Assembly: GCA_020639315.1 (NCBI GenBank)
Contig: JACKGM010000002.1
Location: 158,321-222,320, forward strand
Direction: 5' to 3'
Source of the DNA: Candidatus Nomurabacteria bacterium
GTDB lineage: Bacteria; Patescibacteriota; Saccharimonadia; JAGOAT01
Length of the DNA: 64,000 bases
Both the position numbers and the translations under genes were made by a program. Positions 4,083-58,547 of this stretch are shown here, piece by piece; positions within the stretch are counted from its first letter, which is position 1, and each line of letters begins with the position of its first letter. The notes beneath the pieces were generated by a model. It saw only the letters and a list, made by a program, of their open reading frames with translations. It was not told the DNA's origin and did no database searches.

Positions 4083-4108
4083 TAATCTCTAAAGTTTCAA
4101 GGCAATGC

Positions 4109-4587
4109 TGTCATCCTCCGAAACCCCGCCTCTCTCTTGTCATCCTCCGAAGTTCAGAGAACTTACGGGGGATCCAGTATTCGGCATTGTGCATTGTCAT
4201 CCTCCGAAACCCGTCCCTTGTCTTGTCATCCTCCGAAGTTCGGAGAACTTACGGGGGATCCAGTATTCTGGCATTGTGCATTGTCATCCTCCGAAACCCA
4301 GAGGGTTTACGGGGGATCCAGTGTTTAGTATTTCCTATGACCAACTCAAATACTGGATCTCCGGTATTTCCCCAAGGGGAAATCCGAAGATGACTGGAGG
4401 AAGAGGATTGTCATCCTCCGAAACTTTGTCCCTCTCCTGTCATCCTCCGAAGTTCGGAGAACTTACGGGGGATCCAGTATTCGGCATTGTGCATTGTCAT
4501 CCTCCGAAACCCAGAGGGTTTACGGGGGATCCAGTATCCCAGCATTTGCATCCGTCATACTCAGAGCTTGCTCTGGGTATCCAGAAA
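4109..4587. repeat. REP/BIME-like hairpin repeat cluster A (about 7 full units, 3 half units, 1 reverse unit)
   Basis: Repeated TGTCATCCTCCGAA-[stem-loop]-TTACGGGGGATCCAGTATT. Reverse unit at 4348-4394. Variant GTCATACTCAGAGCttgCTCTGGGTATCCAG at 4554. Lies between convergent genes. Confidence 0.9.
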
Positions 4588-4605
4588 TACCTAATAACGG
4601 AGCCC

Positions 4606-5346
4606 CTACTTTCTACCAAATGACTCAAATGCCCGAAGAATTTCGAGCGGTATTGCAAATACTACAGTATTAGACTGGTCACTACTCAGATCATTTAAAG
4701 TATTTAGTGTCCTGAGATGAAGAGCGCCTGTACTTTGGGCCAAAGTGTCAGCAGCCAGCTTCAGATTCTCTGCTGCTACCACCTCGCCCTTGGACTTGAT
4801 CACCACAGCCCGTTTCTCCCGTTCAGCCTCAGCTTGCTTGGCAATCACCCTCTGCATATCATCCGGCAAAATTATGTCCTTGAGCTCCACACTCTCGACA
4901 CTAATCCCCCAGGGGTCTGAAGTCGTATCAATAATATTGCGAATCTTTTCAGCAGCTGTTTCCCGATTGGCTAGTAACTGATCTAGATCCATCTCACCAC
5001 AAACATTACGCATCGTAGTTTGGGCGAGCTGACTAATCGCAAAGTAGTAATTTTCGACTGCCAAGACAGCCTTGGAAGCATCATTGACTTTGTAATAAAT
5101 CACTGCATTGATTCTGGCAGATACATTATCTTTGGTGATCGCCTCTTGGCTCGGGACATCTACTGTCTTGACTCTGATATCAACCTTGGTCATGCTCTGG
5201 ATTACAGGGAAGATTAGTCTCCAGCCAGGGCCAACAATCCCCTTGTATCGACCAAACTGAAATTTTACTCCTCTCTGATATTCATCTACTTGGCGAATAC
5301 TAACTAAAATAACCAATAATCCAAAAACCAATAATCCTACACCCAT
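4606..5346 (-). CDS. SPFH/band-7 (stomatin/prohibitin-like) membrane protein
   Basis: N-terminal TM segment, then VDEYQRGVKFQFGRY...DVPSQEAITKDNV...AEREKRA, typical of an SPFH domain. Start moved to the ATG at 5346, which is preceded by AGGAGG; the ORF-track start at 5403 has no RBS. Confidence 0.85.
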   Translation of the reverse strand: MGVGLLVFGLLVILVSIRQVDEYQRGVKFQFGRYKGIVGPGWRLIFPVIQSMTKVDIRVKTVDVPSQEAITKDNVSARINAVIYYKVNDASKAVLAVENYYFAISQLAQTTMRNVCGEMDLDQLLANRETAAEKIRNIIDTTSDPWGISVESVELKDIILPDDMQRVIAKQAEAEREKRAVVIKSKGEVVAAENLKLAADTLAQSTGALHLRTLNTLNDLSSDQSNTVVFAIPLEILRAFESFGRK

Positions 5347-5492
5347 TTTACCTCCTGGCATTAATACTACTTTAACCATATAGTAATTAGGAAGCAAAAT
5401 CAAATAACAATAGGTAGAACTTTCGCATTTCCTGATAGATTTTCAGCTTCTTAAAAAGGATTGATAGTAGAGAATTACGGGGGTGGTTGCAT

Positions 5493-5537
5493 TGTCATCC
5501 TCCGAAAATCCAAAGGATTTTACGGGGGATCCAGTAT
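5493..5537 (+). repeat. single REP-like hairpin unit (AATCC/GGATT stem)
   Basis: TGTCATCCTCCGAAAATCCaaaGGATTTTACGGGGGATCCAGTAT. A partial TTACGGGGG lies just upstream at 5475. Confidence 0.85.
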
Positions 5538-5604
5538 CTCGTATCTGTATTCCGTTATAAACTAGTAAATTTCTATTGACCAAGAATGATCATTAATGTT
5601 AACC

Positions 5605-5790
5605 TATACATCAGTCCTTGGTGGAATCTATGATCACAATAGAACGGGGAAGTAGGGTGAGATTCCCTCGCTGTGCCGCAACTGTAAGTCTGATAATCTA
5701 TCAGGCAAAGCCAGAATACCGTACCATCATCAGACGTATCCTTCGTAGCAAAGGAGCGTGCGGTATTAATCGATCTCACTACCCTTGCTA
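5605..5790 (+). promoter_or_regulatory. cobalamin (B12) riboswitch (boundaries approximate)
   Basis: GGTGG...AGAACGGGGAAGTAGGGTGAGATTCCCTCGCTGTGCCGCAACTGTAAG...GCAAAGCCAGAATACC matches the conserved core and B12 box of the cobalamin riboswitch. It lies directly 5' of the ORF at 5813. Confidence 0.8.
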
Positions 5791-7705: not shown

Positions 7706-8020
7706 AAACAAAACCAGACTTTTGACCCAACTCTAGAGTAACCCTGTTGCCATATAAACTTGCGAGGTCAAAGCTGATGATTTTTATTCCAGAATAGCAA
7801 AACACGACAAAGCATAACAAGAGTTACGCTGCGAAGTGTTTTGCTAGTCTGGGGCAAAAATGGCAGTTTTGAAGCCGTGAGGTTATATGGCAACAGGGTT
7901 AGTTTATAAAGCTAGTTTTCTTACTCACCATATCTATGGATATGGCTCTTAAGAAGAACTACCTTTCTAGTTCTCTATAGTACAGCTCAAATTGTCTGGT
8001 TTTGGTTTGGGCTTGCTATA
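7693..8020 (+). mobile_element. MITE-A copy interrupted by a nested MITE-B
   Basis: MITE-A left part 7693-7739 and right part 7901-8020 are colinear with the intact copies. The insertion at 7740-7900 is flanked by AGT/AGT. Confidence 0.8.
7740..7900 (+). mobile_element. MITE-B copy (161 bp), long imperfect hairpin, ends AACCCTGTTGCCATATAA...TTATATGGCAACAGGGTT
   Basis: Near-identical to the copy at 17679-17840. 3-bp direct repeat AGT on both flanks. Confidence 0.8.
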
Positions 8021-8047
8021 TCAAAACTATCTAGTGGTAGCAAGGCT

Positions 8048-8235
8048 TGTCATCCTCCGAAACCTGTCCCTTGCCCTGTCATCCTCCGAAACTGTCTCTG
8101 TATTGTCATCCTTCGAAGTTCCACCCCTCTTCTGTCATCCTCCGAAAATCCAAAGGATTTTACGGGGGATCCAGTATTTGACACTGAGTATTGTCATCCT
8201 CCGAAGTTCAGAGGACTTACGGGGGATCCAGTATT
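8048..8235 (+). repeat. REP-like cluster B (3 half units + 2 full units)
   Basis: Same invariant TGTCATCCTCCGAA and TTACGGGGGATCCAGTATT blocks. Confidence 0.9.
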
Positions 8236-8409
8236 GGCATTTCTAGAACCCACCCCAGTCTTGCATTCAATACATAAATATGATAACACTATAGTTAAAA
8301 TATAGTAATCTCAAAACAAAAACGAATCAACTCGAGACAACCAGTAAAAGAATAATAGAGTTAGTTTTTAGTTCTTTTTTTTAATAATAACTAAAGGAGA
8401 AACTCCGAA

Positions 8410-9843
8410 ATGAGCGAAACGACAACAGAAACTACCAAGGACATTGATAATCCTACCCGTCAACATCTACTTGAATTGGTTCAAAATTTACAAAAATCTA
8501 TTGCTATGACTGATCCTCCAGTACCCTTTAAGGAGCAAGGACTAGCGGATATCGCTTCAGAGAATGATAAATTAGAATATCAACTTGAGTACCTCGAGAA
8601 ACTTCGTCAATGTGTCCAAGCAGCCCTGTGGCTGGCACTGATTGGTAAGCTCAAGAGGCCAGAAGATATAGGAGATAAAAGTAATACAATACTATCATCT
8701 GTAGTATTATCTGCCCATCAACTTGCCCATTTTATTCAATTCAAACCTGATAGAGTGCAAAGATTTTCTATTGACCCTCAATCTTTCGCTGATCTCGAGA
8801 CACGCCAAAGGTTTACTGCATTGCAAGAAGCGGTACAAGCAGCAGTAGACAACTCCCCAGAGTCTCCCGAGACTGAGGTGATGAGATACCTACTAGAGTT
8901 AGACCCTCACAGTCCTGAATCATTAGATCCAACTCCCAAGTGGTTTGGTGAGTTCCTTAATCAACACCCAGAGCTAGCAAGCCTGGATCCCATATACTGC
9001 GCAGCCATATTAACCAATGCTGCAAAGTATCAAGAGGCAATTGATTCTATCAAGGGTAGCCAGAACCTTACCGTAGGTCAGAAGCGGAAAATCATAAATA
9101 AAATCTCGACAATTCAATTAACTAATCCTAGTATACCCCCAGAAGATGTATCTACTCAGATCCGTGAGCTTGTACACTTAAATTCTTCTGATCAGGATTT
9201 GCTAATAGCCAAGATCCTTGTCAACCGAGCCTCAAATGACCCCAGCATCTCCATAGAAAATGTATCTACTCAGATCCGTGGGCTTGTACACTTAAATTCT
9301 TTTGATCAGGATTTGCAAATAACCGAGATCCTTGTCAACCGAGCCTCAAATGACCCCAGCATCTCCATAGAAAATGTATCTACTCAGATCCGTGGGCTTA
9401 AAGAGTTAACTCCTGGGAAGCAGGATTTGCAAATAGCCAGGATCCTTATCAACCGAGCCTCAAATGACCTCAGCATCTCCATAGAAGATGTATCTACTCA
9501 GATCCGTGGGCTTAAAAAGTTAACTCCTGAGAGGCAGGATTTGCAAATAGCCAGGATCCTTATCAACCGAGCCTCAAATGACCTCAGCATCTCCATAGAA
9601 GATGTATCTGATCAGATCGATCAGCTTGAAGGCTTAGATGATCAATATAAAGATTGGCCAATAATCGAGATTAATGAAAATCGAGCCGCGAGGAATCTTA
9701 ATACAAAGATTACAGACATAGATCCCAATAATAGGTATTTCTTCTTAGATTATGTCCTTAGCAACCTTTATGATAATCCGCCTGCCTTACAACAATTATT
9801 GCTTGAGTATACCGGCATTAGTGAGGTATCTGTTTCCCAATAG
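8410..9843 (+). CDS. hypothetical protein with five 38-aa tandem repeats
   Basis: Good RBS (AAAGGAGA). Repeats (P/L)SISIE(N/D)VSTQIRGL...QDLQIA(R/E)IL(V/I)NRASND at roughly nt 9130-9640. No known domain recognised. Confidence 0.55.
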   Translation: MSETTTETTKDIDNPTRQHLLELVQNLQKSIAMTDPPVPFKEQGLADIASENDKLEYQLEYLEKLRQCVQAALWLALIGKLKRPEDIGDKSNTILSSVVLSAHQLAHFIQFKPDRVQRFSIDPQSFADLETRQRFTALQEAVQAAVDNSPESPETEVMRYLLELDPHSPESLDPTPKWFGEFLNQHPELASLDPIYCAAILTNAAKYQEAIDSIKGSQNLTVGQKRKIINKISTIQLTNPSIPPEDVSTQIRELVHLNSSDQDLLIAKILVNRASNDPSISIENVSTQIRGLVHLNSFDQDLQITEILVNRASNDPSISIENVSTQIRGLKELTPGKQDLQIARILINRASNDLSISIEDVSTQIRGLKKLTPERQDLQIARILINRASNDLSISIEDVSDQIDQLEGLDDQYKDWPIIEINENRAARNLNTKITDIDPNNRYFFLDYVLSNLYDNPPALQQLLLEYTGISEVSVSQ

Positions 9844-9875
9844 ACTCGTTCAATCAGTTTTCTGGCACAATAATT

Positions 9876-10031
9876 AACCCTATTGTCATATAGCAAGTTA
9901 AAAACTGATGATTTTTATTCTAGAGTATCAAAACATGACAAAGCATAACAGGAGTTACGCTGCGAAGTGTTTTGCTAGTCTGGGGCAAAAATGGCAGTTT
10001 TGAAGCCGTGAGGTTATATGGCAACAGGGTT
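9876..10031 (+). mobile_element. MITE-B copy (156 bp) with an altered 5' arm
   Basis: The 3' two-thirds are near-identical to other copies. Flanked by ATT/ATT. The 5' arm carries TATAGCAAGTTAAAAAC, which resembles a MITE-A terminus. Confidence 0.7.
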
Positions 10032-10086
10032 ATTATCTATTTTGAGTTGTTGGCAACCGAGTTATTTTCTGCTTTAATCTAATGGT

Positions 10087-12685: not shown

Positions 12686-12846
12686 GACCCTGATACTATA
12701 TAAACTTGTGAGGTCAAAATTGATGATTTTTATTCCAGGGTATCAGAACAGGACAAAGCATAATAGATATTATGTTGCGGAGTGTTTTGTTAGTCTGGGG
12801 CAAAAAAGGCAGTTTTGAAGCCGTGAGGTTATATAGCATCAGGGTC
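12686..12846 (+). mobile_element. MITE-B copy (161 bp), diverged
   Basis: Colinear with the other copies but with many substitutions. It fills the whole intergenic gap and contains both candidate start codons of the next gene. Confidence 0.7.
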
Positions 12847-14393: not shown

Positions 14394-14407
14394 CACAGGG
14401 AGTATTG

Positions 14408-14506
14408 GTCATCCCCCGAAACCCGTCCCTCTCTTGTCATCCTCCGAAACCCACCCCTCTCCTGTCATCCTCCGAAGTTCGAAGAACTTACGGGGGATCC
14501 AGTGTT
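14408..14506 (+). repeat. REP-like cluster C (2 half units + 1 full unit)
   Basis: GTCATCCCCCGAAACCC..., TGTCATCCTCCGAAACCC..., TGTCATCCTCCGAAGTTCgaaGAACTTACGGGGGATCCAGTGTT. Confidence 0.9.
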
Positions 14507-14518
14507 TCACAAACAAGT

Positions 14519-15591
14519 CCCATAGTTCCAATATCAAATGCAACCGTTAGAATAATACATACAATTAAACGAAAGGATTGCATGAGTCACCTAACGGCTG
14601 CAGAACGGGGTAAGATAGAAGTCTTACTCCAAGACAATTATACAAATAATCAAATAGCAAAGCGAATTGGTAAAGATAAATCTACTATAGGTAGAGAGAT
14701 CAAAAGAGGGCTTGATGGTAAAGGTATCTATCATACCTGGATAGCTCAATCTAGCTATGAAGAGAACCGACAAGAATCTAGACAGATACCAATCTTAGAT
14801 AACCCAGTTAATCATCGTTTACGCAGTCGAGTAGTAGACTGCCTACAGAAGGGCTGGAATCCAGTAACTATCTCAGGTAGATTAAAGAAAGAAGGACACC
14901 CATCAGTCTCTGCTGAAACTATCTATAACTGGATATATACTAGCTCTTGGGCTAAAGAGGAAAAGCTCTATCAATATCTTAGACAAGGCAAGAAAAAGAG
15001 AACCAAGAATCAAGGTAGGTCATCTCATAGGTCTAAGATACCAAATCGAGTATCTATCCATAAAAGACCAGAAGTTGTAAATCAAAGAACCAGACTAGGA
15101 GATTGGGAGGGTGATAGTGTCTTATACCTACATAAACAAGCTATTAACACTGTAAACGAGAGAATTAGTAGTTTAGTAGTATTTACTAAACTAGACCGTA
15201 AGACAGCAGAGGAGACAGCCAATGCAGTAATAGACGGGCTTAGAGGTCTTGTTGCCCATACCATCACCTTTGATAATGGTACTGAATTCACTAAACACGA
15301 GAGAATCACAGAAGCTATTGGTATAGAGGTATACTTTGCTGATCCATATAGCTCTTGGCAGAGAGGAGCTAACGAGAATATCAACGGACAACTTAGGGCG
15401 TATCTCCCTAAGCGTAGTGATATTAGGGGACTAACCCAACAAGAGCTAGATGATATAGCCTGGGAGCTTAATAACAAGCCTAGAAAAAGACTAGGGTGGC
15501 ATACACCTCAAGAGGTTTACGATTGGCTTGCTTCTAACCCTAATAGTGAGTTAGACTTAGCTAAGGTTGCATTTGGAAATAGAATCTAGGG
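14519..15591 (+). mobile_element. IS30-family insertion sequence, copy 1 (1073 bp)
   Basis: Reads as the same sequence as 25417-26489 by eye, and the sense and antisense ORF translations are identical. Imperfect terminal IRs CCCATAGTTCCAATATCAAATGCAACCGTTAG / CTAAGGTTGCATTTGGAAATAGAATCTAGGG. Confidence 0.9.
14582..15589 (+). CDS. IS30-family DDE transposase
   Basis: 335 aa. HTH N-terminus, DWEGD, DNGTEF and SWQRGANENINGQLRAYLPK motifs. Start taken from the identical copy 2; the ORF-track start at 14405 runs through REP repeats. Confidence 0.9.
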   Translation: MSHLTAAERGKIEVLLQDNYTNNQIAKRIGKDKSTIGREIKRGLDGKGIYHTWIAQSSYEENRQESRQIPILDNPVNHRLRSRVVDCLQKGWNPVTISGRLKKEGHPSVSAETIYNWIYTSSWAKEEKLYQYLRQGKKKRTKNQGRSSHRSKIPNRVSIHKRPEVVNQRTRLGDWEGDSVLYLHKQAINTVNERISSLVVFTKLDRKTAEETANAVIDGLRGLVAHTITFDNGTEFTKHERITEAIGIEVYFADPYSSWQRGANENINGQLRAYLPKRSDIRGLTQQELDDIAWELNNKPRKRLGWHTPQEVYDWLASNPNSELDLAKVAFGNRI

Positions 15592-15631: not shown

Positions 15632-16939
15632 ATGCAACAAGCAACCTTTAGTATCTTTGGTCGAACCAATGTCGGCAAATCCACCCTATTCAACCACTTG
15701 ATTGGTCGACGCCTGGCAATCGAATCCGACTACCTCAATACCACCCGTGACCCGATTAGACAAACTGTCACATTCGATCAGCAAAATTGGCAAATCGTCG
15801 ATACGCCTGGCCTCGATAAGACTGATGATGCTCTTGCCAGACTAGCGATGGATCAAATCGACCACCTAATAGATGAAAGTGATGTATCAGCTCTAGTAGT
15901 TGATGGGACAGTAGAAGCTAGCGAGCTAGACATCAGCCTCGCTAGACGCCTTAGACGAAGTGGCAAACCTGTAATTTTACTAGTCAACAAGGCTGATATT
16001 ACGAGCAAGTTTCTTGGGCTAGCAAACTATCAAAAGCTTGGGATTAGAGAAATGATCCCAATTTCCTCGATCCACAATATTGGCATAGATCAGATTAGGT
16101 CAGCTCTCTCCCAATACTATTCTTCTAGTAATCAAGCTGACAACTTTGACCCAGAATTAAGCATTAGTCTAGTCGGCAAGCCAAATGTCGGCAAATCCTC
16201 ACTACTCAATGCCTTGTCCAGGCATCAGGTCAGTCTAGTATCTGAGATAGCAGGCACTACCAGAGATCAAGTCTCAGCCAACTGGCAAGTGGATGATCAG
16301 ACCATCAATCTGGTCGATACTGCCGGAATTAGAAAAAATGGCAAAGTTAGCAAACAGATTGAGAAACTATCTCTTCTAAGAACCAAGAAGGCGATCGAGC
16401 AGTCTGAAATCTGTCTACTTGTCCTCGATGCCGAATTGCCTGATGGGCATCTTGACCAGAAGATAGCCGGGATGATTGATCAAGCTGGCAAAGGGCTAAT
16501 CATCATTATCAATAAGTGGGACAAGATTGACGACACAGAACAAGAAGTATTCAAGCAAACAATTGCAAAATCTTTCCAATTCATCTGGTGGGCTCCGATT
16601 GTCTTTGTCTCTGCCAAGACTGGATCTGGCCTCAATCAACTAGCTGATTTAGTAAAAATTGTTGAAGCCAATATTCACCAGCCCAAGAGTATCAAACAAA
16701 TTGATAGGATCCTCAATCAAGCTTTTCAAAAACATCCAGCAAAAACGATCAAAGATCATAAGACTGTCAAATTTAGTAATGCCAAGGTTGTTGACAACCT
16801 GCCGCTGACAATTCAACTCTATGGTCGAGATATTAGTCAGCTACATTTTTCTTATCTAAGATATCTAGAAAATCAGCTTAGAGATCGACTAGAGATGACT
16901 GGTGTTCCGATCAAGATTATCAATCATCCAGCTCGATGA
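15632..16939 (+). CDS. der: ribosome-associated GTPase Der/EngA
   Basis: Two G domains (GRTNVGKST, DTPG, NKAD; GKPNVGKSS, DTAG, NKWD) and a KH-like C-terminus. Confidence 0.95.
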   Translation: MQQATFSIFGRTNVGKSTLFNHLIGRRLAIESDYLNTTRDPIRQTVTFDQQNWQIVDTPGLDKTDDALARLAMDQIDHLIDESDVSALVVDGTVEASELDISLARRLRRSGKPVILLVNKADITSKFLGLANYQKLGIREMIPISSIHNIGIDQIRSALSQYYSSSNQADNFDPELSISLVGKPNVGKSSLLNALSRHQVSLVSEIAGTTRDQVSANWQVDDQTINLVDTAGIRKNGKVSKQIEKLSLLRTKKAIEQSEICLLVLDAELPDGHLDQKIAGMIDQAGKGLIIIINKWDKIDDTEQEVFKQTIAKSFQFIWWAPIVFVSAKTGSGLNQLADLVKIVEANIHQPKSIKQIDRILNQAFQKHPAKTIKDHKTVKFSNAKVVDNLPLTIQLYGRDISQLHFSYLRYLENQLRDRLEMTGVPIKIINHPAR

Positions 16940-17481
16940 CCAGACTAATCGTTGGGCTAGGCAATCCTGGTAAACAATATCAATTTAGCCGTCACAATCT
17001 GGGCTGGATGGTGCTTGATCAGCTTGCGACAGACCTAAACCTCCAATGGTCCACTCATAAATACAGCTTGACTAGCAAAAGCCCTGATCTTATTCTGGCC
17101 AAGCCCACTACTTATATGAACCTTAGTGGTCAGGCAGTCCAAAAACTTAAAGCCTTTTACAAGCTTGACAATCAGGCGATCACCATTGTCTATGATGACT
17201 ATGCTATAGACTTTGGTGATCTTAGGATCCGTCACTCCGGAAGTGATGCCGGACATAATGGCCTAAAATCCGTGATTCAAGCAATCGGAGAAGACTTTTG
17301 GCGCTACCGGATAGGGATTGGTCCCAAGCCTGAATATCAGCCGACTAGAGATTTTGTCCTGGCTAACTTTTCAGACAATGAAGTTTCCAGCTTGGGTTCA
17401 ATTATTCCAGCTACAGCGAAATACTTACTTGACACGGCTCAACCAGCCGATACTACCCTTCGAATACTGGATTTACCATAA
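16936..17481 (+). CDS. pth: peptidyl-tRNA hydrolase
   Basis: LIVGLGNPGKQYQFSRHNLGW...GHNGLKS. ATGA overlap with der. The last 6 codons and the stop lie in a REP-like unit. Confidence 0.95.
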   Translation: MTRLIVGLGNPGKQYQFSRHNLGWMVLDQLATDLNLQWSTHKYSLTSKSPDLILAKPTTYMNLSGQAVQKLKAFYKLDNQAITIVYDDYAIDFGDLRIRHSGSDAGHNGLKSVIQAIGEDFWRYRIGIGPKPEYQPTRDFVLANFSDNEVSSLGSIIPATAKYLLDTAQPADTTLRILDLP

Positions 17482-17678
17482 TTTCCTAGAGGAAATTTGG
17501 GAGATGACACGGAGAGGGAAGCGGAATTTTGGAAGATGACAGGAGGGCATTGTCATCCTCCGAAACCCGTCCCTTGTCTTGTCATCCTCCGAAACCCGTC
17601 CCTTGTCTTGTCATCCTCCGAAACCCGTCCCTTGTCTTGTCATCCTCCGAAACCCGAAGGGTTTACGGGGGATCCAGT
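17463..17678. repeat. REP-like cluster D (reverse full + reverse half, three perfect 29-bp half units, one full unit cut by MITE-B)
   Basis: AATACTGGATTTACC...GAGATGAC; ...GGAAGATGAC; 3x TGTCATCCTCCGAAACCCGTCCCTTGTCT (starts 17551, 17580, 17609); full unit from 17638. Confidence 0.9.
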
Positions 17679-17840
17679 AACCCTATTGCCATATAAACTT
17701 GCGAGGTCAAAGCTGATGATTTTTATTCCAGAATAGCAAAACACGACAAAGCATAACAGGAGTTACGCTGCGAAGTGTTTTGCTAGTCTGGGGCAAAAAA
17801 TGGCAGTTTTGAAGCCGTGAGGTTATATGGCAACAGGGTT
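17679..17840 (+). mobile_element. MITE-B copy (162 bp) inserted into the 3' end of a REP-like unit
   Basis: Flanks ...GGATCCAGT | element | AGTATTTATGG. Removing the element and one AGT restores the canonical GGATCCAGTATTT. Confidence 0.85.
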
Positions 17841-17898
17841 AGTATTTATGGGGCCCAGTTATTAGACAGCTGAGCTCAATCAATGCTAAAATACCACT

Positions 17899-19730: not shown

Positions 19731-19773
19731 TTTTATAAGCATTGTAACTTCTTATCCTTAGTTCCCAAATTCA

Positions 19774-20201
19774 GATACTGGATCTCCCATAATTTCCTAA
19801 AGGAAATTTGGAAGATGACACGAAGAGGCCTTGTCATCCTCCGAAACCCGCCCCTTGCCCTGTCATCCTCCGAATCCTCGTAAGAGGATTACGGGGGATC
19901 CAGTATTAGTATTGTGTATTGCATTGCCATCCTCCGAAGTCCAAAGAACTTACGGGGGATCCAGTATCCCGTATTTGCATCCGTCATACTCAGAGCTTGC
20001 TCTGGGTATCCAGAAAACTAATAATAAACATAAAAACTAACTGTACTACCTAATCCATTATCTAGAGTTCTGGATCCCCAACTTTTCCTTCAAATGAAGG
20101 GCGGAAAAGTTGAGGATGACTCAATTCCTGTCATCCTCCGAAACCTGTCGCTTGTCCTGTCATCCTCCGAAACCCGGAGGGTTTACGGGGGATCCAGTAT
20201 T
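19774..20201. repeat. REP-like cluster E (two reverse+forward composites plus extra units)
   Basis: Reverse units 19774-19819 and 20067-20120. Forward half units at 19832 and 20129. Full units at 19861, 19924 and 20158. Variant unit at 19983. Confidence 0.9.
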
Positions 20202-20210
20202 CTACATTTA

Positions 20211-25341: not shown

Positions 25342-25416
25342 CTTATCTCTCTATTACCTTGTTATTTAGACTCCAGACAAATCTATTATACCAAAAAACA
25401 TCGATCAAAAACCTGA

Positions 25417-26489
25417 CCCATAGTTCCAATATCAAATGCAACCGTTAGAATAATACATACAATTAAACGAAAGGATTGCATGAGTCACCTAACGGCTGCA
25501 GAACGGGGTAAGATAGAAGTCTTACTCCAAGACAATTATACAAATAATCAAATAGCAAAGCGAATTGGTAAAGATAAATCTACTATAGGTAGAGAGATCA
25601 AAAGAGGGCTTGATGGTAAAGGTATCTATCATACCTGGATAGCTCAATCTAGCTATGAAGAGAACCGACAAGAATCTAGACAGATACCAATCTTAGATAA
25701 CCCAGTTAATCATCGTTTACGCAGTCGAGTAGTAGACTGCCTACAGAAGGGCTGGAATCCAGTAACTATCTCAGGTAGATTAAAGAAAGAAGGACACCCA
25801 TCAGTCTCTGCTGAAACTATCTATAACTGGATATATACTAGCTCTTGGGCTAAAGAGGAAAAGCTCTATCAATATCTTAGACAAGGCAAGAAAAAGAGAA
25901 CCAAGAATCAAGGTAGGTCATCTCATAGGTCTAAGATACCAAATCGAGTATCTATCCATAAAAGACCAGAAGTTGTAAATCAAAGAACCAGACTAGGAGA
26001 TTGGGAGGGTGATAGTGTCTTATACCTACATAAACAAGCTATTAACACTGTAAACGAGAGAATTAGTAGTTTAGTAGTATTTACTAAACTAGACCGTAAG
26101 ACAGCAGAGGAGACAGCCAATGCAGTAATAGACGGGCTTAGAGGTCTTGTTGCCCATACCATCACCTTTGATAATGGTACTGAATTCACTAAACACGAGA
26201 GAATCACAGAAGCTATTGGTATAGAGGTATACTTTGCTGATCCATATAGCTCTTGGCAGAGAGGAGCTAACGAGAATATCAACGGACAACTTAGGGCGTA
26301 TCTCCCTAAGCGTAGTGATATTAGGGGACTAACCCAACAAGAGCTAGATGATATAGCCTGGGAGCTTAATAACAAGCCTAGAAAAAGACTAGGGTGGCAT
26401 ACACCTCAAGAGGTTTACGATTGGCTTGCTTCTAACCCTAATAGTGAGTTAGACTTAGCTAAGGTTGCATTTGGAAATAGAATCTAGGG
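25417..26489 (+). mobile_element. IS30-family insertion sequence, copy 2 (1073 bp)
   Basis: Same sequence as copy 1 as far as read by eye, in the same orientation. Confidence 0.9.
25480..26487 (+). CDS. IS30-family DDE transposase
   Basis: The 335-aa translation is identical to copy 1. Confidence 0.9.
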   Translation: MSHLTAAERGKIEVLLQDNYTNNQIAKRIGKDKSTIGREIKRGLDGKGIYHTWIAQSSYEENRQESRQIPILDNPVNHRLRSRVVDCLQKGWNPVTISGRLKKEGHPSVSAETIYNWIYTSSWAKEEKLYQYLRQGKKKRTKNQGRSSHRSKIPNRVSIHKRPEVVNQRTRLGDWEGDSVLYLHKQAINTVNERISSLVVFTKLDRKTAEETANAVIDGLRGLVAHTITFDNGTEFTKHERITEAIGIEVYFADPYSSWQRGANENINGQLRAYLPKRSDIRGLTQQELDDIAWELNNKPRKRLGWHTPQEVYDWLASNPNSELDLAKVAFGNRI

Positions 26490-29574: not shown

Positions 29575-29641
29575 TTTCAAGGGGTGCCCTTGAAATCACC
29601 CATTCCAACAGATCAAAATTAGCAAGGGGTGCCCTTGAAAA
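29575..29641 (+). repeat. palindromic doublet (REP type 2) upstream of the RAYT gene
   Basis: TTTCAAGGGgtgCCCTTGAAA - 26 nt - GCAAGGGgtgCCCTTGAAAA. Confidence 0.85.
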
Positions 29642-29746
29642 GGACAAAAAACAAACTGGTTCTGCTTGTCAAAATGTACTTAATTAAGCTACAATACTAC
29701 CAACAGATATTTTTAACTATCCTTAATTAACTACTACTATAAAATT

Positions 29747-30400
29747 ATGCCGAGCCCCAATACGGTTAGAATCTTTTGCTCAGACTCCAGTTTTCATATA
29801 TATTGCCGAGGGAATAGAAAACTACCTATATTTTTCAGCGCACAAGAATATGAAAAATTTATGTCTATTTTACTTTTTCTATTAACCCCAAAAGCAAAAG
29901 TAGCAGATAATCTTAAGATATTTTCCAAACCTAGACTAGCTAGTCAAGATTTTAGCCAAGCTATCCATTTAGTTGCATTTACCTTAATGCCTAATCATTA
30001 CCATCTCGTTATTCATGCTAAAGAATCTTCTTTGGTACCAGGGTTTATGCAAAGACTAAATCAAAAATTTACACATTTAATCAATACCAATCATAACTTT
30101 GTAGGACATCTATTCCAAAGTCAGTACAAATCAAGATTGATAAACTCCGAGCTAGATTTGGTCAATACAACTGCCTATGTCCATCTCAACTCAAATGAAC
30201 TAATGCGAACCAACACTGAATATTATAAAGAATACCCCTATAACAGTTTAGCAACTACTCACCCAGTGTCAGCCGTGGTTGACCAGAGTTTGCTTTTCAC
30301 TAAATCTGGCTTTAGTAGGGAAGACTATAATAAATATTTAGATATAAAATCAAAGAATTTTCTAGAGATGCAATTTATGAAAAAATTAATGTCTAGTTGA
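29747..30400 (+). CDS. IS200-like Y1 (HUH) transposase, REP-associated tyrosine transposase (RAYT)-like
   Basis: HUH motif MPNHYHLVI, GHLFQSQYKSRLI and TTAYVHLN are typical of the Y1_Tnp/RAYT family. Flanked by matching palindromic doublets. Confidence 0.8.
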   Translation: MPSPNTVRIFCSDSSFHIYCRGNRKLPIFFSAQEYEKFMSILLFLLTPKAKVADNLKIFSKPRLASQDFSQAIHLVAFTLMPNHYHLVIHAKESSLVPGFMQRLNQKFTHLINTNHNFVGHLFQSQYKSRLINSELDLVNTTAYVHLNSNELMRTNTEYYKEYPYNSLATTHPVSAVVDQSLLFTKSGFSREDYNKYLDIKSKNFLEMQFMKKLMSS

Positions 30401-30430
30401 CACTCAAGAGGTCTTTTGTGTTTCATCCTT

Positions 30431-30496
30431 TTTCAAGGGGTGCCCTTGAAATTACTCATCCCAACAGATCAAAATTAGCAAGGGGTGCCCTTGAAA
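30431..30496 (+). repeat. palindromic doublet (REP type 2) downstream of the RAYT gene
   Basis: Same architecture and orientation as 29575-29641. Confidence 0.85.
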
Positions 30497-30523
30497 TCAT
30501 CAATCTTACTGTTGGACTGAAGT

Positions 30524-30687
30524 TATAGCAAGTTAAAAACAAAACCAGACTTTTGACCCAACTCTAGAGTCTATCAAGCTAGTTTTCTTACTCACCATAT
30601 CTATGGATATGGCTCTTAAGAAGAACTACCTTTATAGTTCTCTATAATACAGCTCAAATTGTCTGGTTTTGTTTTGAGCTTGCTATA
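30524..30687 (+). mobile_element. MITE-A copy (164 bp)
   Basis: Full-length copy with both TIRs. Confidence 0.8.
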
Positions 30688-30706
30688 AGTGTGTTAAATT
30701 ACTAAT

Positions 30707-33583: not shown

Positions 33584-33650
33584 TTTCAAGGGGTGCCCTT
33601 GAAATCACCTACCCCAACAGATCAAAACTAGCAAGGGGTGCCCTTGAAAA
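33584..33650 (+). repeat. palindromic doublet (REP type 2), third copy
   Basis: TTTCAAGGGgtgCCCTTGAAA ... GCAAGGGgtgCCCTTGAAAA, in the divergent pyrB/receiver intergenic region. Confidence 0.85.
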
Positions 33651-45718: not shown

Positions 45719-46977
45719 AGCCTAGGCAGATAGATAACCTATCTGGTACAAAAAAATTAAGCTCAAAATCAATCATGAGCTCCTATCGCAAACCAAAACC
45801 CAAACAACCTCAACCCAAAGTTAGCTCAAAAAAAGACCAAATAACCAAATCAACCCCCAGACTGTCTGAAGATACCGATAATACTCAAGAAAACTTAACT
45901 CCTAAAAACCTGACTAGTAAAAGTGCAACAAACACCAAGATTGCAAATCAGGCCCCAGTAGATTCTAATTTTTCACTTAGTCTACTCAAACATCAAATAA
46001 TCAACCTTGCCCCCAACCTAAGCTTAAAAAGCAAACCTACAAAGAATATTTTCAGTTTCAAGCTTGATCAGTCCTTCAAAACAGTAGTACTTCTAAACTG
46101 GCTCAAGACTTTGACTTGGCTCACTCCTTACCTAATCTGGATTATAATTAGTATCTTTAAGAACAACAATAAATCGATTTTTACCTCACTAGCTAGCACT
46201 GACTTGTCAGACTTTTACCTCACTATTACTAGTGCAATGATAGTGCTAATCTGGATAACTCACATCCTAGACAACCTAATAGCCCTCCACGAGACAAGAT
46301 TAGTGAGTCATTGGCAGAATAAGGACTCAGATATCAACCAAATTTTTATCAATTACCGTAGTAAGCTGGACTTGAGGCAAGTAGGTTTTTTAGTCTTACT
46401 GTTTGCCATTAGTATAAATGGACTATTTATTTTTAGACCTGTATCGGGGTCAAGCCAAGCACTGACTTCTATTATTTTTAGTCTGACTTTATTTATCACG
46501 CTTGGCTACCATATTCTAAGCATGATTTGGATAGATCAAAAAAGGTTTGGTTATCAACTTAATAAACAAGCAATACCTAGCAGGCTTAGTTATCAAGGAA
46601 GCATTGCCAAGAGTATATTGTATCTTGTCCAGATAGCAATGATTGGGCTTATGATACTTGGTCTTACTTACGCTTCAAGAATTCCCAATATCTTAATCTT
46701 GATAATAACCCTAATCACCAGCTTAATAATCAGCCTGACCGTCAAGGCAACTGACCAGTTAATCAACTTTACCTTACTAACAAGCTACCTATATAAGCCT
46801 ATCAAAAGTAATAATAACCCTAATTGGCATCAATACTTTAAGACCAAGCTGATATTTTGCATCTGTCTTAGTATTTCTTTAATCGGCTTAAGCTGGATAT
46901 TTGACAGTCCGGTAGTCTCGATCCTTTCAAGATTTCAAGAGATTTTAACCACTTTGCTTGACAGAGCCAGTCAATAA
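45715..46977 (+). CDS. hypothetical multi-pass membrane protein
   Basis: 420 aa with a basic/polar N-terminus and multiple TM segments. No motif recognised. Confidence 0.45.
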   Translation: MKPRQIDNLSGTKKLSSKSIMSSYRKPKPKQPQPKVSSKKDQITKSTPRLSEDTDNTQENLTPKNLTSKSATNTKIANQAPVDSNFSLSLLKHQIINLAPNLSLKSKPTKNIFSFKLDQSFKTVVLLNWLKTLTWLTPYLIWIIISIFKNNNKSIFTSLASTDLSDFYLTITSAMIVLIWITHILDNLIALHETRLVSHWQNKDSDINQIFINYRSKLDLRQVGFLVLLFAISINGLFIFRPVSGSSQALTSIIFSLTLFITLGYHILSMIWIDQKRFGYQLNKQAIPSRLSYQGSIAKSILYLVQIAMIGLMILGLTYASRIPNILILIITLITSLIISLTVKATDQLINFTLLTSYLYKPIKSNNNPNWHQYFKTKLIFCICLSISLIGLSWIFDSPVVSILSRFQEILTTLLDRASQ

Positions 46978-47007
46978 CCCTTCGCATTCTTGGCTATCCT
47001 TCGGGTC

Positions 47008-47391
47008 TGTCATCCTCCGAATCCCGCCCTCTCCTGTCATCCTCCGAATCCTGACCCTTGTCCTGTCATCCTCCGAAAATCCAAAGGATTTTACGGGGGA
47101 TCCAGTATTTCTGCATTTCTGGGATTCAATTCAAATACTGGATCTCCGGTATTCCCCTCCGGGTAATCCGAAGATGACAAGAGGGAGCATTGTCATCCTC
47201 CGAATCCTGACCCTTGTCCTGTCATCCTCCGAAAATCCAAAGGATTTTACGGGGGAACCAGTATTTCTGCATTTCTGGGATTCAATTCAAATACTGGATC
47301 TCCGGTATTCCCCTCCGGGTAATCCGAAGATGACAAGAAGGGCATTATCATCCTCCGAATCCTCGCATGAGGATTACGAGGTAATCAGTAT
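47008..47391. repeat. REP-like cluster F, including a 155-156 bp tandem duplication
   Basis: Half units at 47008, 47035 and 47191. Full units at 47064 and 47219. Reverse units around 47133 and 47289. Degenerate unit at 47345. Confidence 0.9.
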
Positions 47392-47510
47392 CCTGTCACA
47401 AAATCAGTAACCTAACGTAAAATAAGCAAAATAAGTCTACTTGAGAAAACCCCTAAGACTTGGTAAAATAACCAAGTCTTAGATATTGACACCAAATCTG
47501 ACGACATTTT

Positions 47511-52293: not shown

Positions 52294-52308
52294 AACCACA
52301 GCTTAGAT

Positions 52309-52472
52309 TATAGCAAGTTAAAAACAAAATCAGACTTTTGACCCAACTCTAGAGTCTATAAAGCTAGTTTTCTTACTCACCATATCTATGGATATGGCTC
52401 TTAAGAAGAACTACCTTTCTAGTTCTCTATAGTACAGCTCAAATTGTCCGGTTTTGTTTTGAGCTTGCTATA
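52309..52472 (+). mobile_element. MITE-A copy (164 bp)
   Basis: Full-length copy with both TIRs, between rluA-like and tRNA-Thr. Confidence 0.8.
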
Positions 52473-52555
52473 TTTAAAAATATCATAGTAATGCCATAAA
52501 GTTTTATGGTAAGATACTTAGCGTGATAGCCCAATATTTTGGTTCATCACAAATC

Positions 52556-57419: not shown

Positions 57420-58547
57420 GTGTACAAATTGACCAAACCTTTGATTTTTATTGCTGGAGTTGTCCTAGGTATCAGTCTTGCCTACTTCAATCTACCTTTG
57501 ACCCACCAGTCTTCGGAAGTCAGCCCAGCGACCGAGCAAGAATTTCAACCGATTTTTGAGACTTTATCACTAATCCAGGACAAATATGCCAGAGATTATG
57601 ATATTAGTGAGCTAATTGACTCAGCCAACAAAGGCTTAGTAGCTGGTCTTGGAGATGACTTCAGCTACCAGCTCAATGCCGAAGAGTTTTCTCAGCTTGA
57701 GGCTAGCCTCAATAGTACTTTTAGTGGTGTGGGTATTCGCCTTGATCAAGTAGAGGGCAAAACTTTTGTCGTCACACCGATCAAAGACTCTCCAGCCCTA
57801 GCAGCTGGGATCAAGCCAGGTGATCAGATTGTCAAAGTCGATGACGAGGATATCACAGATCAACCATTAGACCTAATTATTAGCAAGATCACTGGACCTG
57901 TTGATAGCTATGTCACACTTAGTCTTATTAGAGGCGAGGAACCCTTGCAGTTTGAAATTCAACGCAAAGAAATCGTTGCACCCTCGACTAACCTCGAATA
58001 CAAAGATGGAGTAGCGGTCCTCGATATCGACCAATTTGCTCGCAATACCGCTAATGAAGTATCTAGCTATTTAGCTGAACCCGAGTTGCAATCCAGCAAG
58101 GAACTGATTATTGATCTCAGGGATAACCCTGGAGGCTACTTGGATAGCGTAGTTGAAATAGCTGATTACTTCCTAGACTCTGGTGTTATTTACTCCCAAA
58201 AAGGCAAACAATCCGAACACTCTGAATCAGCGGACAAAGAGACCATGGTGCCGACCGATCTTCAGATCGTAGTACTGATTGACGATCACAGTGCCTCAGC
58301 TGCCGAGATCCTGGCAGGAGCGCTCAAGGATAACCATCGTGCCACCCTGATTGGACAAAAGACATATGGGAAGGGAAGTGTCCAGGAGCTGATCGACGTC
58401 GACGATGACAACTACCTGAGGCTAACTACGGCTCTTTGGTATACTCCTGATGGCGTCAATATCGACCACGAAGGCATTAGCCCAGATACTACCCTGGAAT
58501 CAGATCAAGATAGCCTAGAATATGCCCTAAGTCATTTAGATGACTGA
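57420..58547 (+). CDS. S41 carboxyl-terminal processing protease with PDZ domain
   Basis: PDZ (GIKPGDQIVKVDD), DLRDNPGGYL, SASAAEILAGALKD. GTG start. Confidence 0.85.
   Translation: MYKLTKPLIFIAGVVLGISLAYFNLPLTHQSSEVSPATEQEFQPIFETLSLIQDKYARDYDISELIDSANKGLVAGLGDDFSYQLNAEEFSQLEASLNSTFSGVGIRLDQVEGKTFVVTPIKDSPALAAGIKPGDQIVKVDDEDITDQPLDLIISKITGPVDSYVTLSLIRGEEPLQFEIQRKEIVAPSTNLEYKDGVAVLDIDQFARNTANEVSSYLAEPELQSSKELIIDLRDNPGGYLDSVVEIADYFLDSGVIYSQKGKQSEHSESADKETMVPTDLQIVVLIDDHSASAAEILAGALKDNHRATLIGQKTYGKGSVQELIDVDDDNYLRLTTALWYTPDGVNIDHEGISPDTTLESDQDSLEYALSHLDD

Follow-up and report, generated by a model that had tools for sequence, protein, structure and literature searches.

What are the hairpin repeats that fill so many intergenic regions of this genome, and which protein acts on them? 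The stretch analyzed here (the window) is 64,000 nucleotides of contig JACKGM010000002.1, positions 158,321 to 222,320, from a bacterium deposited as Candidatus Nomurabacteria (assembly GCA_020639315.1) and placed by GTDB in the Saccharimonadia of the Patescibacteriota. A preliminary description, made from the letters alone, had noted seven intergenic clusters of one imperfect palindrome, and all seven lie where it placed them: six within 4-20 kb, one at 47 kb, and none elsewhere in the window. We conclude that the units probably are Ssn-related motifs (SRMs) of the NTS/dRS3 type, a long-stem subclass carried in arrays that resemble the neisserial intergenic mosaic elements. The repeat class was already described in 2025, and the window family is a further, long-stem example of it from Patescibacteria. 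This assignment is based on the anatomy of the hairpin, its strand asymmetry and covariation, the identity of its motifs with NTS and SRM, and the association of the motif class with ssn genes elsewhere; the biochemistry of Ssn is taken from the literature.

A covariance model (R1) was built solely from window units. With filters off, the covariance-model search of the window returned 24 full hairpin units and no further matches in the 64 kb; 17 half units accompany them. Both counts lie far above chance and agree with the first estimates of roughly two dozen and about 17. The full units comprise 16 F units and 2 short-stem T units on the + strand and 6 R units on the - strand. Sense matches scored 35-73 bits, compared with at most 17 bits for antisense matches. 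An F unit consists of TGTCATCCTCCGAA (5' block), a variable stem-loop, and TTACGGGGGATCCAGTATT (3' block). The 5' block occurs 31 times with at most one mismatch, always on the + strand, where shuffled sequences would give 0.03, and 28 of the 31 copies are exact. The 3' block occurs 15 times with at most two mismatches, also only on the + strand, against an expectation of 0; 8 of the 15 are exact. The blocks, initially called invariant, are strongly over-represented but not strictly invariant. The T unit, CGTCATACTCAGAGCTTGCTCTGGGTATCCAG, is present in two copies, both at the 3' end of a cluster. The R units read GTCATCTTCGGA...CCGGAGATCCAG (also given as GTCATCTTCGGA...CCGGAGATCCAGTATT). Units do occur in both orientations, as had been claimed; the six reverse ones, however, have diverged into a subfamily to which the consensus blocks do not fit.

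Each half unit is a 5' arm followed by a G-poor tract of 13-16 nt, repeating with a period of 27-29 nt; 16 lie on the + strand and 1 on the - strand. The tract had been taken for the C/T-rich tail of the half unit and is better read as lying upstream of the next unit. The arrays have visibly grown by tandem duplication of a 29-nt block (3.7 copies, 100% identical by TRF) and of composite blocks of 86 nt (2.2 copies) and 156 nt (2.1 copies). Only 1 of the 24 units overlaps a gene: R17467 (17461-17511) covers the last codons of pth (16936-17481), outside the Pfam domain, which is the single exception that had been allowed for. The repeats also produce artefactual open reading frames (ORFs) that traverse clusters: 4105-4623, 7992-8246, 46958-47410, and, as regards its 5' extension, 14405-15589. 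Protein-coding repeats were rejected, since the 29-nt period is not a multiple of 3, and a CRISPR-like array was considered and dropped.

At least one half unit follows each R unit, and an F unit comes next, which gives R-(half)n-F modules of 130-220 bp with inverted ends. Such modules could be MITEs (miniature inverted-repeat transposable elements) of a DDE-type insertion sequence (IS), with AATACTGGATC/GATCCAGTATT as terminal inverted repeats, and the window is indeed rich in true MITEs and carries an IS30-family element. However, sequence reading revealed no target-site duplications at the module ends, most F units stand solo or in direct tandem, and the inverted ends are merely two oppositely oriented units. 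The ends of the IS30 element and of MITE families A and B are unrelated to the units, and derivation from either was rejected. We regard a DDE-type MITE as a scarcely credible explanation.

A MAFFT alignment combining the 24 window units with 4 from metagenome contigs (28 in all) served to test the structure of the unit as a 15-pair hairpin. Paired cells made up 97.4%, versus 82% in shuffles and at most 59% when the partners were slid, and 9 of the 15 pairs contain changes on both sides, i.e., compensatory changes. The hairpin is under selection. The unit measures 39-42 nt and has a stem of 14-15 bp. Its lower 8 bp are conserved (ATCCTCCG/CGGGGGAT) and include one T·G wobble, present in 26 of 27 distinct sequences; on the 5' side of the lower 3' arm lies an unpaired (bulged) A. 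In the upper 6-7 bp the sequence is free to vary while complementarity is kept, and at least six types were seen (GTTC/GAAC, ACCC/GGGT, AATCC/GGATT, TCCTC/GAGGA, TTTCC/GGAAA, and others). The invariant or near-invariant columns of the alignment spell GTCAT (C6, A7, and T8 invariant; G4 and T5 at least 90% conserved) and ATCCAG (C, A, and G invariant; the other positions at least 90% conserved). The stem is followed on its 3' side by CCAGTATT.

In the R units, compensatory changes have preserved both wobble and bulge on the unit's own sense strand, so that the structure is strand-specific whichever way a unit lies in the genome. When folded as DNA, the sense strand of three types gave -9.4, -10.1, and -5.3 kcal/mol versus -7.8, -8.6, and -4.6 kcal/mol for the complement, and DNA fold z-scores ranged from -2.2 to -3.4. 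RNA hairpins of the units are also stable (-17 to -24 kcal/mol), and G·U wobbles are compatible with RNA. As 18 of the 24 units share the orientation of the genes, which are mostly on the + strand, and the majority are located downstream of a gene, the units might be stem-loops of 3' untranslated regions that terminate transcription or protect mRNA 3' ends. Against this, no U-run follows the stem, CCAGTATT standing in its place, and on these grounds an intrinsic terminator was rejected. The six R units keep wobble and bulge on the strand antisense to local genes, one unit (5491-5540) lies in a divergent promoter region, and the conserved unpaired flanks match the site of a single-stranded-DNA protein. 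Rfam gave nothing at the gathering score in the window, and a permissive search gave only chance-level, miRNA-like hairpins within the clusters (E of 0.19 or worse). An RNA-level function is very improbable as the explanation of the family; a secondary effect of the units on mRNA is possible.

Outside the window, R1 matched two hairpins, TGTCATTCCCGCGTAGGCGGGAATCCAGTAT and another, in a contig of Candidatus Moraniibacteriota. These are near-canonical NTS-type hairpins in a metagenome-assembled genome (MAG), PDPP01000016.1 (L006, 6926-6961 and 20637-20672). No ssn gene was present in the 21 kb of L006 that were read, from this other lineage of the candidate phyla radiation. We took the hairpins to be close to the dRS3 repeat of Neisseria, and a literature search followed.

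The dRS3 repeat is part of a 28-nt oriented element, the Neisseria Transformation Sequence (NTS), with the sequence CGTCATTCCCGCGMAVGCGGGAATCYRG (Chenal et al. 2025, PMC11893778). The same study gives a Neisseria wadsworthii variant, NTSvar (CGTCATACTCGGGN5CCCGAGTATC), and defines the degenerate SRM, HGTCWYN(0-2)YYVSBRHN(0-5)WNVSBRGN(0-2)RNCYNB. Such hairpins are found flanking genes whose products are small GIY-YIG proteins of a single domain (cd10448, Ssn), which bind the hairpin as single-stranded DNA only, on the sense strand only, and not as RNA; cleavage falls a few nucleotides upstream of the hairpin (PMC11893778). With SsnA of N. meningitidis, cleavage depends most on the three bases 5' of the palindrome, and binding on the C directly 3' of it (PMC11893778). 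The same paper shows that loop identity is dispensable and that complementary extensions are tolerated at the loop position. In N. meningitidis, the Ssn system lowers the integration of transforming DNA that bears NTS (PMC11893778).

The window units have the frame of the Neisseria NTS/dRS3 repeat and of SRM: (T/C)GTCAT, palindrome, ATCCAG. They are inverted repeats in the 20-50 nt range of the class, able to form a hairpin, they carry a non-palindromic 5' flank, (H)GTCWY, that orients them, and right 3' of the palindrome they have a C within a tail of the form RNCYNB (ATCYRG in NTS, ATCCAG here). They are also seldom inside genes and fall in non-random clusters. The T units agree with NTSvar as printed at 10/10 bases of the 5' end and 6/7 of the 3' end; they differ from it in the inner stem sequence, and the window has only two of them. 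The pentamer CCTCC, for which an anti-Shine-Dalgarno resemblance had been suggested, belongs to the C-rich 5' arm of the family (YYVSBRH in SRM, TCCCGCG in NTS) and is no anti-Shine-Dalgarno signal. The preliminary description had held the sequence to be unrelated to known repeats, while allowing that a described family might match; NTS/SRM is such a match, and R1 also finds hairpins that flank ssn genes. Nor is the density of the units unexpected for a reduced genome, as had been thought. It is no anomaly for the class: genomes with >300 SRMs are enriched in symbionts such as Rickettsia and Wolbachia (PMC11893778).

Analysis of ssn loci revealed that the motif class is associated with these genes. 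R1 matched the NTS copies to either side of N. gonorrhoeae ssnA. Applied to 45 further, unrelated ssn loci, it gave 33 matches, 30 of which lie within 200 nt of the ssn gene, a zone that makes up 7.4% of the DNA in these loci (binomial P of about 5e-31). A match near ssn was found in 17 of the 45 loci, and on both sides in 7. Long-stem hairpins at two ssn genes (L053, TGTCATCCTCCGGCGAGCCGAAGGTGAGACCGGGGGACCCAGTACT; L043, similar) share TGTCATCCTCCG with the window units at 12/12 positions and CGGGGGA(C/T)CCAGTA at 13/14, together with the T·G wobble and the bulged A. The same design recurs on both sides of ssn in L023 and L027 and twice upstream of it in L022. These hairpins come from IMG/VR contigs, at a distance of 13-98 nt from ssn and, at some of the loci, to either side of it. 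They have the two-tier stem and the bulged A on the 3' side; they differ from the window units in their upper stems, in numbering one to few copies per locus instead of forming long arrays, and in coming from high-G+C hosts of unknown taxonomy. Around gonococcal ssnA, as in L023 and L027, there are likewise 5' half units with a G-poor tract behind them, and oppositely oriented pairs of subtypes.

Several observations weigh against the assignment to the Ssn system. The strict SRM pattern has 0 matches in the window, versus 11 in the gonococcal ssnA locus. Neither the 64 kb of the window nor the 8.8 kb past its right end contains a GIY-YIG/Ssn ORF. Ssn homologues are undetectable in 19% of genomes with >200 SRMs, and Patescibacteria are not mentioned in the Ssn paper (PMC11893778). 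The contigs that supplied the 45 control loci are labelled viral, have a high G+C, and are of unknown taxonomy, and a G·T wobble would suit an RNA hairpin equally. The first of these points can be traced to a single element of the pattern, as the loop gap is the only obstacle to a strict match. When the gap was widened from N(0-5) to N(0-25), 17 of the 24 units fitted all specified SRM positions. This loop-relaxed pattern has 17 matches in the window, all of them units, compared with a mean of 0.93 and a maximum of 4 in shuffles. The strict pattern likewise misses the long-stem hairpins at real ssn genes, solely because its loop gap is too short. The published search pattern misses this long-stem subclass, with its two-tier stem, bulged A, and T·G wobble; since such hairpins flank ssn genes, the SRM-ssn association was probably underestimated in the published survey.

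The likeness to the Neisseria NTS/dRS3 and SsnA system extends to the organization of the repeats. Both families have (C/T)GTCAT, a palindrome AT......AT, and C(C/T)(A/G)G, with a C-rich 5' arm and a G-rich 3' arm, and both are extragenic and clustered, with two subtypes in opposite orientation and 5' half units followed by a G-poor tract. They differ in that NTS has a perfect 9-bp stem, whereas the two-tier stem of the window units has 14-15 bp, a bulged A, and a T·G wobble. In the window the tail CCAGTATT is more conserved and tandem half units are much commoner. In Neisseria, a proteobacterium, ssnA sits among the repeats; in the window, from a patescibacterial epibiont, no ssn is in view.

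The missing partner gene raises the question of whether the units are orphans. ORFs of the GIY-YIG type were sought with a tblastn bait, a motif regular expression, and a hidden Markov model (HMM) of 120 Ssn proteins in the window and in contigs L001-L009; the HMM detected each of four positive controls, at an E of 2e-24 or lower. No such ORF was found in the window or in those contigs. As the preliminary description had it, no cognate gene is in view, and the other proteins of the window are of housekeeping types. A protein-database search with an Ssn consensus as bait returned 8000 GIY-YIG proteins; none of the 120 listed, about a quarter of which carry a source name, was named as Saccharibacteria. 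The nuclease might have been lost or never present, leaving the units as relics or in the service of another host factor. The absence of ssn from about 73 kb (the window plus the 8.8 kb past its right end) and the SRM-rich genomes without a detectable homologue cited above would both agree with this. Yet the 64 kb cover only a small fraction of the genome. Arguments for continuing selection or recent activity are the very high conservation of the units (28/31 5' blocks exact), the maintenance of wobble and bulge through compensatory changes, the 100% identity of the 29-nt array between copies, and the near-identical units in three other metagenomes. We consider an orphan family unlikely.

The gene first proposed as the one to seek was a Y1/HUH transposase, and the window does encode one. 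The RAYT-like Y1 transposase gene at 29747-30400 (179 amino acids as called by NCBI) matches NF047646 with an E of 7.5e-11, below the model cut-off. A parallel with repetitive extragenic palindromic (REP) elements and BIMEs had also been drawn, and it holds as a functional analogy: the units are clustered, extragenic, imperfect palindromes in both orientations. REP, BIME, and REPIN elements are likewise recognized as single-stranded hairpins with a short conserved 5' flank, occur as alternating subtypes in arrays, and typically flank their own partner gene. With a conserved 5' flank, a strand-specific wobble and bulge, and R-F inverted pairs resembling REPINs, the units might then be classical REPs or REPINs mobilized in trans by a RAYT. 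The flank, however, is GTCAT and not GTAG or GTGG, the motif class colocalizes with the GIY-YIG gene ssn, an enzyme of another superfamily, in 17/45 independent loci, and among the RAYT homologues searched none was found flanked by, or otherwise linked to, these units. As had been reported, the sole RAYT of the window is flanked by a different palindrome. Its flanks (29575-30496) carry 66-nt doublets in direct orientation with the unrelated hairpin TTTCAAGGGGTGCCCTTGAAA (also given as CAAGGGGTGCCCTTG), and a third, solitary doublet lies at 33584-33649. To all appearance, the RAYT and its doublets form a small but genuine REP/RAYT system of their own within a Saccharibacteria genome, distinct from the main family; a 100% identical homologue is the same gene in the Candidatus Saccharibacteria MAG GCA_020428505.1, and a further relative stands at 75%. 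Mobilization of the units by a RAYT is quite improbable.

The motif identity with NTS/SRM and the matches of the window model at ssn genes make a GIY-YIG Ssn single-strand DNA nuclease, not an HUH/RAYT transposase, the likely partner. The gene to expect would encode a GIY-YIG (cd10448) protein of roughly 90-100 amino acids; a Patescibacteria protein other than a canonical cd10448 Ssn is a possibility that we hold with low confidence. The strand asymmetry of wobble and bulge is consistent with recognition of the sense strand only, as known for Ssn. By analogy with Neisseria, we infer that the genome encodes an Ssn, where it would cut, and what its role would be. The sense strand would fold whenever it is single-stranded: in incoming transforming DNA, in the lagging-strand template, or as the strand displaced during transcription. 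The fold would consist of the conserved 8-bp lower stem with its T·G wobble, the bulged A, and the variable 6-7-bp upper stem. A small single-domain Ssn nuclease, encoded elsewhere in the genome and probably flanked by units, would bind this hairpin strand-specifically by way of its lower stem and the C directly 3' of that stem, and would cut in the G-poor tract upstream of GTCAT. The arrays may thereby mark stretches at which incoming single-stranded DNA is cut, modulating recombination after natural transformation. Because Saccharibacteria are described as naturally competent (PMC10187176) and contig L009, which continues past the right end of the window, carries dprA about 8 kb further on, modulating the recombination of incoming DNA would be the most economical role. 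If gene orientation follows replication, the F hairpins would lie on the lagging-strand template, 18 of the 24 units being on the + strand, as are most genes. GC skew is uninformative on the direction of replication. Over most of window positions 1-56000, C exceeds G on the gene-rich + strand (negative GC skew), the opposite of the usual leading-strand bias.

If the Ssn reading is correct, the Ssn/SRM system reaches into the candidate phyla radiation; its host belongs to an epibiont lineage whose natural competence makes the recombination-control role testable in culturable Saccharibacteria. A new Ssn specificity, TGTCATCCTCCG...CGGGGGATCCAG, is predicted, with possible use as a site-specific single-strand DNA nuclease. 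We also put forward, with low confidence, the idea that the tandem 5' half units are not debris but either footprints of Ssn cuts with slipped repair or working parts of the array. As footprints, a cut just upstream with slipped repair would be the first visible mechanism of SRM array growth. As working parts, each extra 5' arm would pair with the single 3' arm of the array, multiplying and staggering the cut sites, a natural counterpart to the split-hairpin cleavage shown in vitro. On this low-confidence view, the arrays would split the chromosome of a naturally competent epibiont into cassettes that differ in their chances of replacement by incoming DNA.

Outside this genome the family was rarely met. 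An exact-pattern scan gave 0 matches in 185,579 species genomes and 0 in viral contigs, and among metagenomes it matched two short contigs only. A translated cluster ORF used as bait against the protein database gave a single match, L007; blastn of cluster 1 against plasmids and phages gave none. No units were found in the 8.8 kb beyond the right end of the window. The same unit architecture occurs in three independent metagenome assemblies (L003, L004, and L007), at contig ends, which shows that it is not an artefact of one assembly. With the window, the family is present in four independent assemblies, and the assembly artefact that had been raised as an alternative was rejected; array lengths are given as assembled. 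In a second strain, the short-read contig breaks at the repeats. Arrays of this kind break short-read assemblies of such genomes and give rise to false ORFs, e.g., 4105-4623 and 46958-47410. The features are listed in Table 1.

Table 1. Positions of hairpin units, half units, and MITE-like copies in the 64-kb window (R1, bit score with the window covariance model; relaxed SRM, match to the loop-relaxed pattern)
Feature	Position	Strand	Evidence
F unit, full long-stem hairpin	4136..4183	+	R1 70.9 bits; relaxed SRM
F unit	4222..4269	+	R1 70.4 bits; relaxed SRM
F unit, upper stem ACCC/GGGT	4280..4327	+	R1 65.7 bits; relaxed SRM
F unit	4436..4483	+	R1 70.4 bits; relaxed SRM
F unit	4493..4540	+	R1 68 bits; relaxed SRM
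Solitary F unit between Band_7 gene start and cobalamin riboswitch	5491..5540	+	R1 70.9 bits; relaxed SRM
F unit, upper stem AATCC/GGATT	8131..8180	+	R1 72.2 bits; relaxed SRM
F unit	8190..8237	+	R1 66.2 bits; relaxed SRM
F unit (F14464); IS30-family element begins at 3' edge (14507)	14461..14508	+	R1 67.6 bits; IS boundary
F unit (F17639); MITE B inserted at CCAGTA tail	17636..17683	+	R1 67.4 bits; MITE boundary
F unit, upper stem TCCTC/GAGGA	19859..19909	+	R1 69.7 bits; relaxed SRM
F unit, TGCCAT variant	19923..19970	+	R1 61.3 bits
F unit	20156..20203	+	R1 69.9 bits; relaxed SRM
F unit	47062..47111	+	R1 72.8 bits; relaxed SRM
F unit	47218..47267	+	R1 69.6 bits; relaxed SRM
Decayed F unit	47344..47394	+	R1 47.9 bits
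T unit, short-stem hairpin CGTCATACTCAGAGCTTGCTCTGGGTATCCAG, near N. wadsworthii NTSvar	4551..4590	+	R1 36.5 bits
T unit	19980..20019	+	R1 35.4 bits
R unit, diverged subfamily	4347..4397	-	R1 63.9 bits; relaxed SRM
R unit (R17467), over last codons of pth	17461..17511	-	R1 59.6 bits; pth ORF 16936-17481
R unit	19772..19822	-	R1 66.3 bits
R unit, long upper stem, no bulge	20064..20123	-	R1 41.1 bits; fold
R unit	47132..47181	-	R1 66.3 bits; relaxed SRM
R unit	47288..47337	-	R1 66.3 bits; relaxed SRM
5' half unit (5' arm + G-poor tract)	4109..4137	+	Block match, cluster reading
5' half unit	4195..4223	+	Block match, cluster reading
5' half unit	4409..4437	+	Block match, cluster reading
Three tandem 5' half units (29, 27, 29 nt)	8048..8132	+	Block match, TRF
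Two tandem 5' half units	14407..14462	+	Cluster reading, TRF
Three identical tandem 29-nt 5' half units	17551..17637	+	TRF period 29, 3.7 copies, 100% matches
5' half unit, R subfamily	17509..17540	-	Sequence reading
5' half unit	19832..19860	+	Block match, cluster reading
5' half unit	20129..20157	+	Block match, cluster reading
Two tandem 5' half units	47008..47063	+	Block match, TRF
5' half unit within 156-nt composite block duplicated 2.1 times (47035-47363)	47191..47219	+	TRF
MITE-like TAACCCTGTTGCCATATAA family copies	7737-7903, 9875-10040, 12687-12845, 17678-17849; also L004, L007
MITE-like TATAGCAAG…CTTGCTATA family copies	2050-2221, 30521-30688, 52303-52473, partial 7901-8035

Other mobile elements lie close to the units. 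The IS30-family element, 1085 bp long, is present in two copies (14507-15591 and 25405-26489) that are 99.6% identical. The first copy begins exactly at the 3' edge of F14464 (…CCAGTGTT/TCACAAAC, with the slash at the junction), and on this account the hairpin units may be hot spots at which other elements insert. One MITE-like family, with copies of about 165 bp, has TA-flanked ends and bears TAACCCTGTTGCCATATAA as its terminal inverted repeats; a single copy interrupts the CCAGTA tail of F17639, and copies follow units in two metagenome contigs. A second MITE-like family, also of about 165 bp, has the inverted ends TATAGCAAG…CTTGCTATA, and one of its copies lies just downstream of the RAYT element.

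The window also has features unconnected with mobile elements. A cobalamin riboswitch (5606-5742) precedes a DUF4430 gene and a prenyltransferase-like gene, and the solitary F unit lies about 65 nt upstream of it, in the divergent promoter region. Between two hairpin clusters, the unannotated gene 8410-9843 contains a 114-nt tandem repeat (9141-9618; 4.2 copies, 90% identity). Apart from the RAYT-like protein, the window proteins have matches only in Logan assemblies of two runs; for the ManC-like protein, the nearest species-representative genome is a Saccharibacteria MAG, at 28% identity. The 918-amino-acid ORF at 58540-61296 consists almost wholly of tandem repeats, with self-match offsets alternating between ~99 and ~120 nt at up to 94% identity. 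It is accompanied by a long antisense ORF (58596-60773) and has only spurious Pfam hits, and its product may be a repetitive surface protein.

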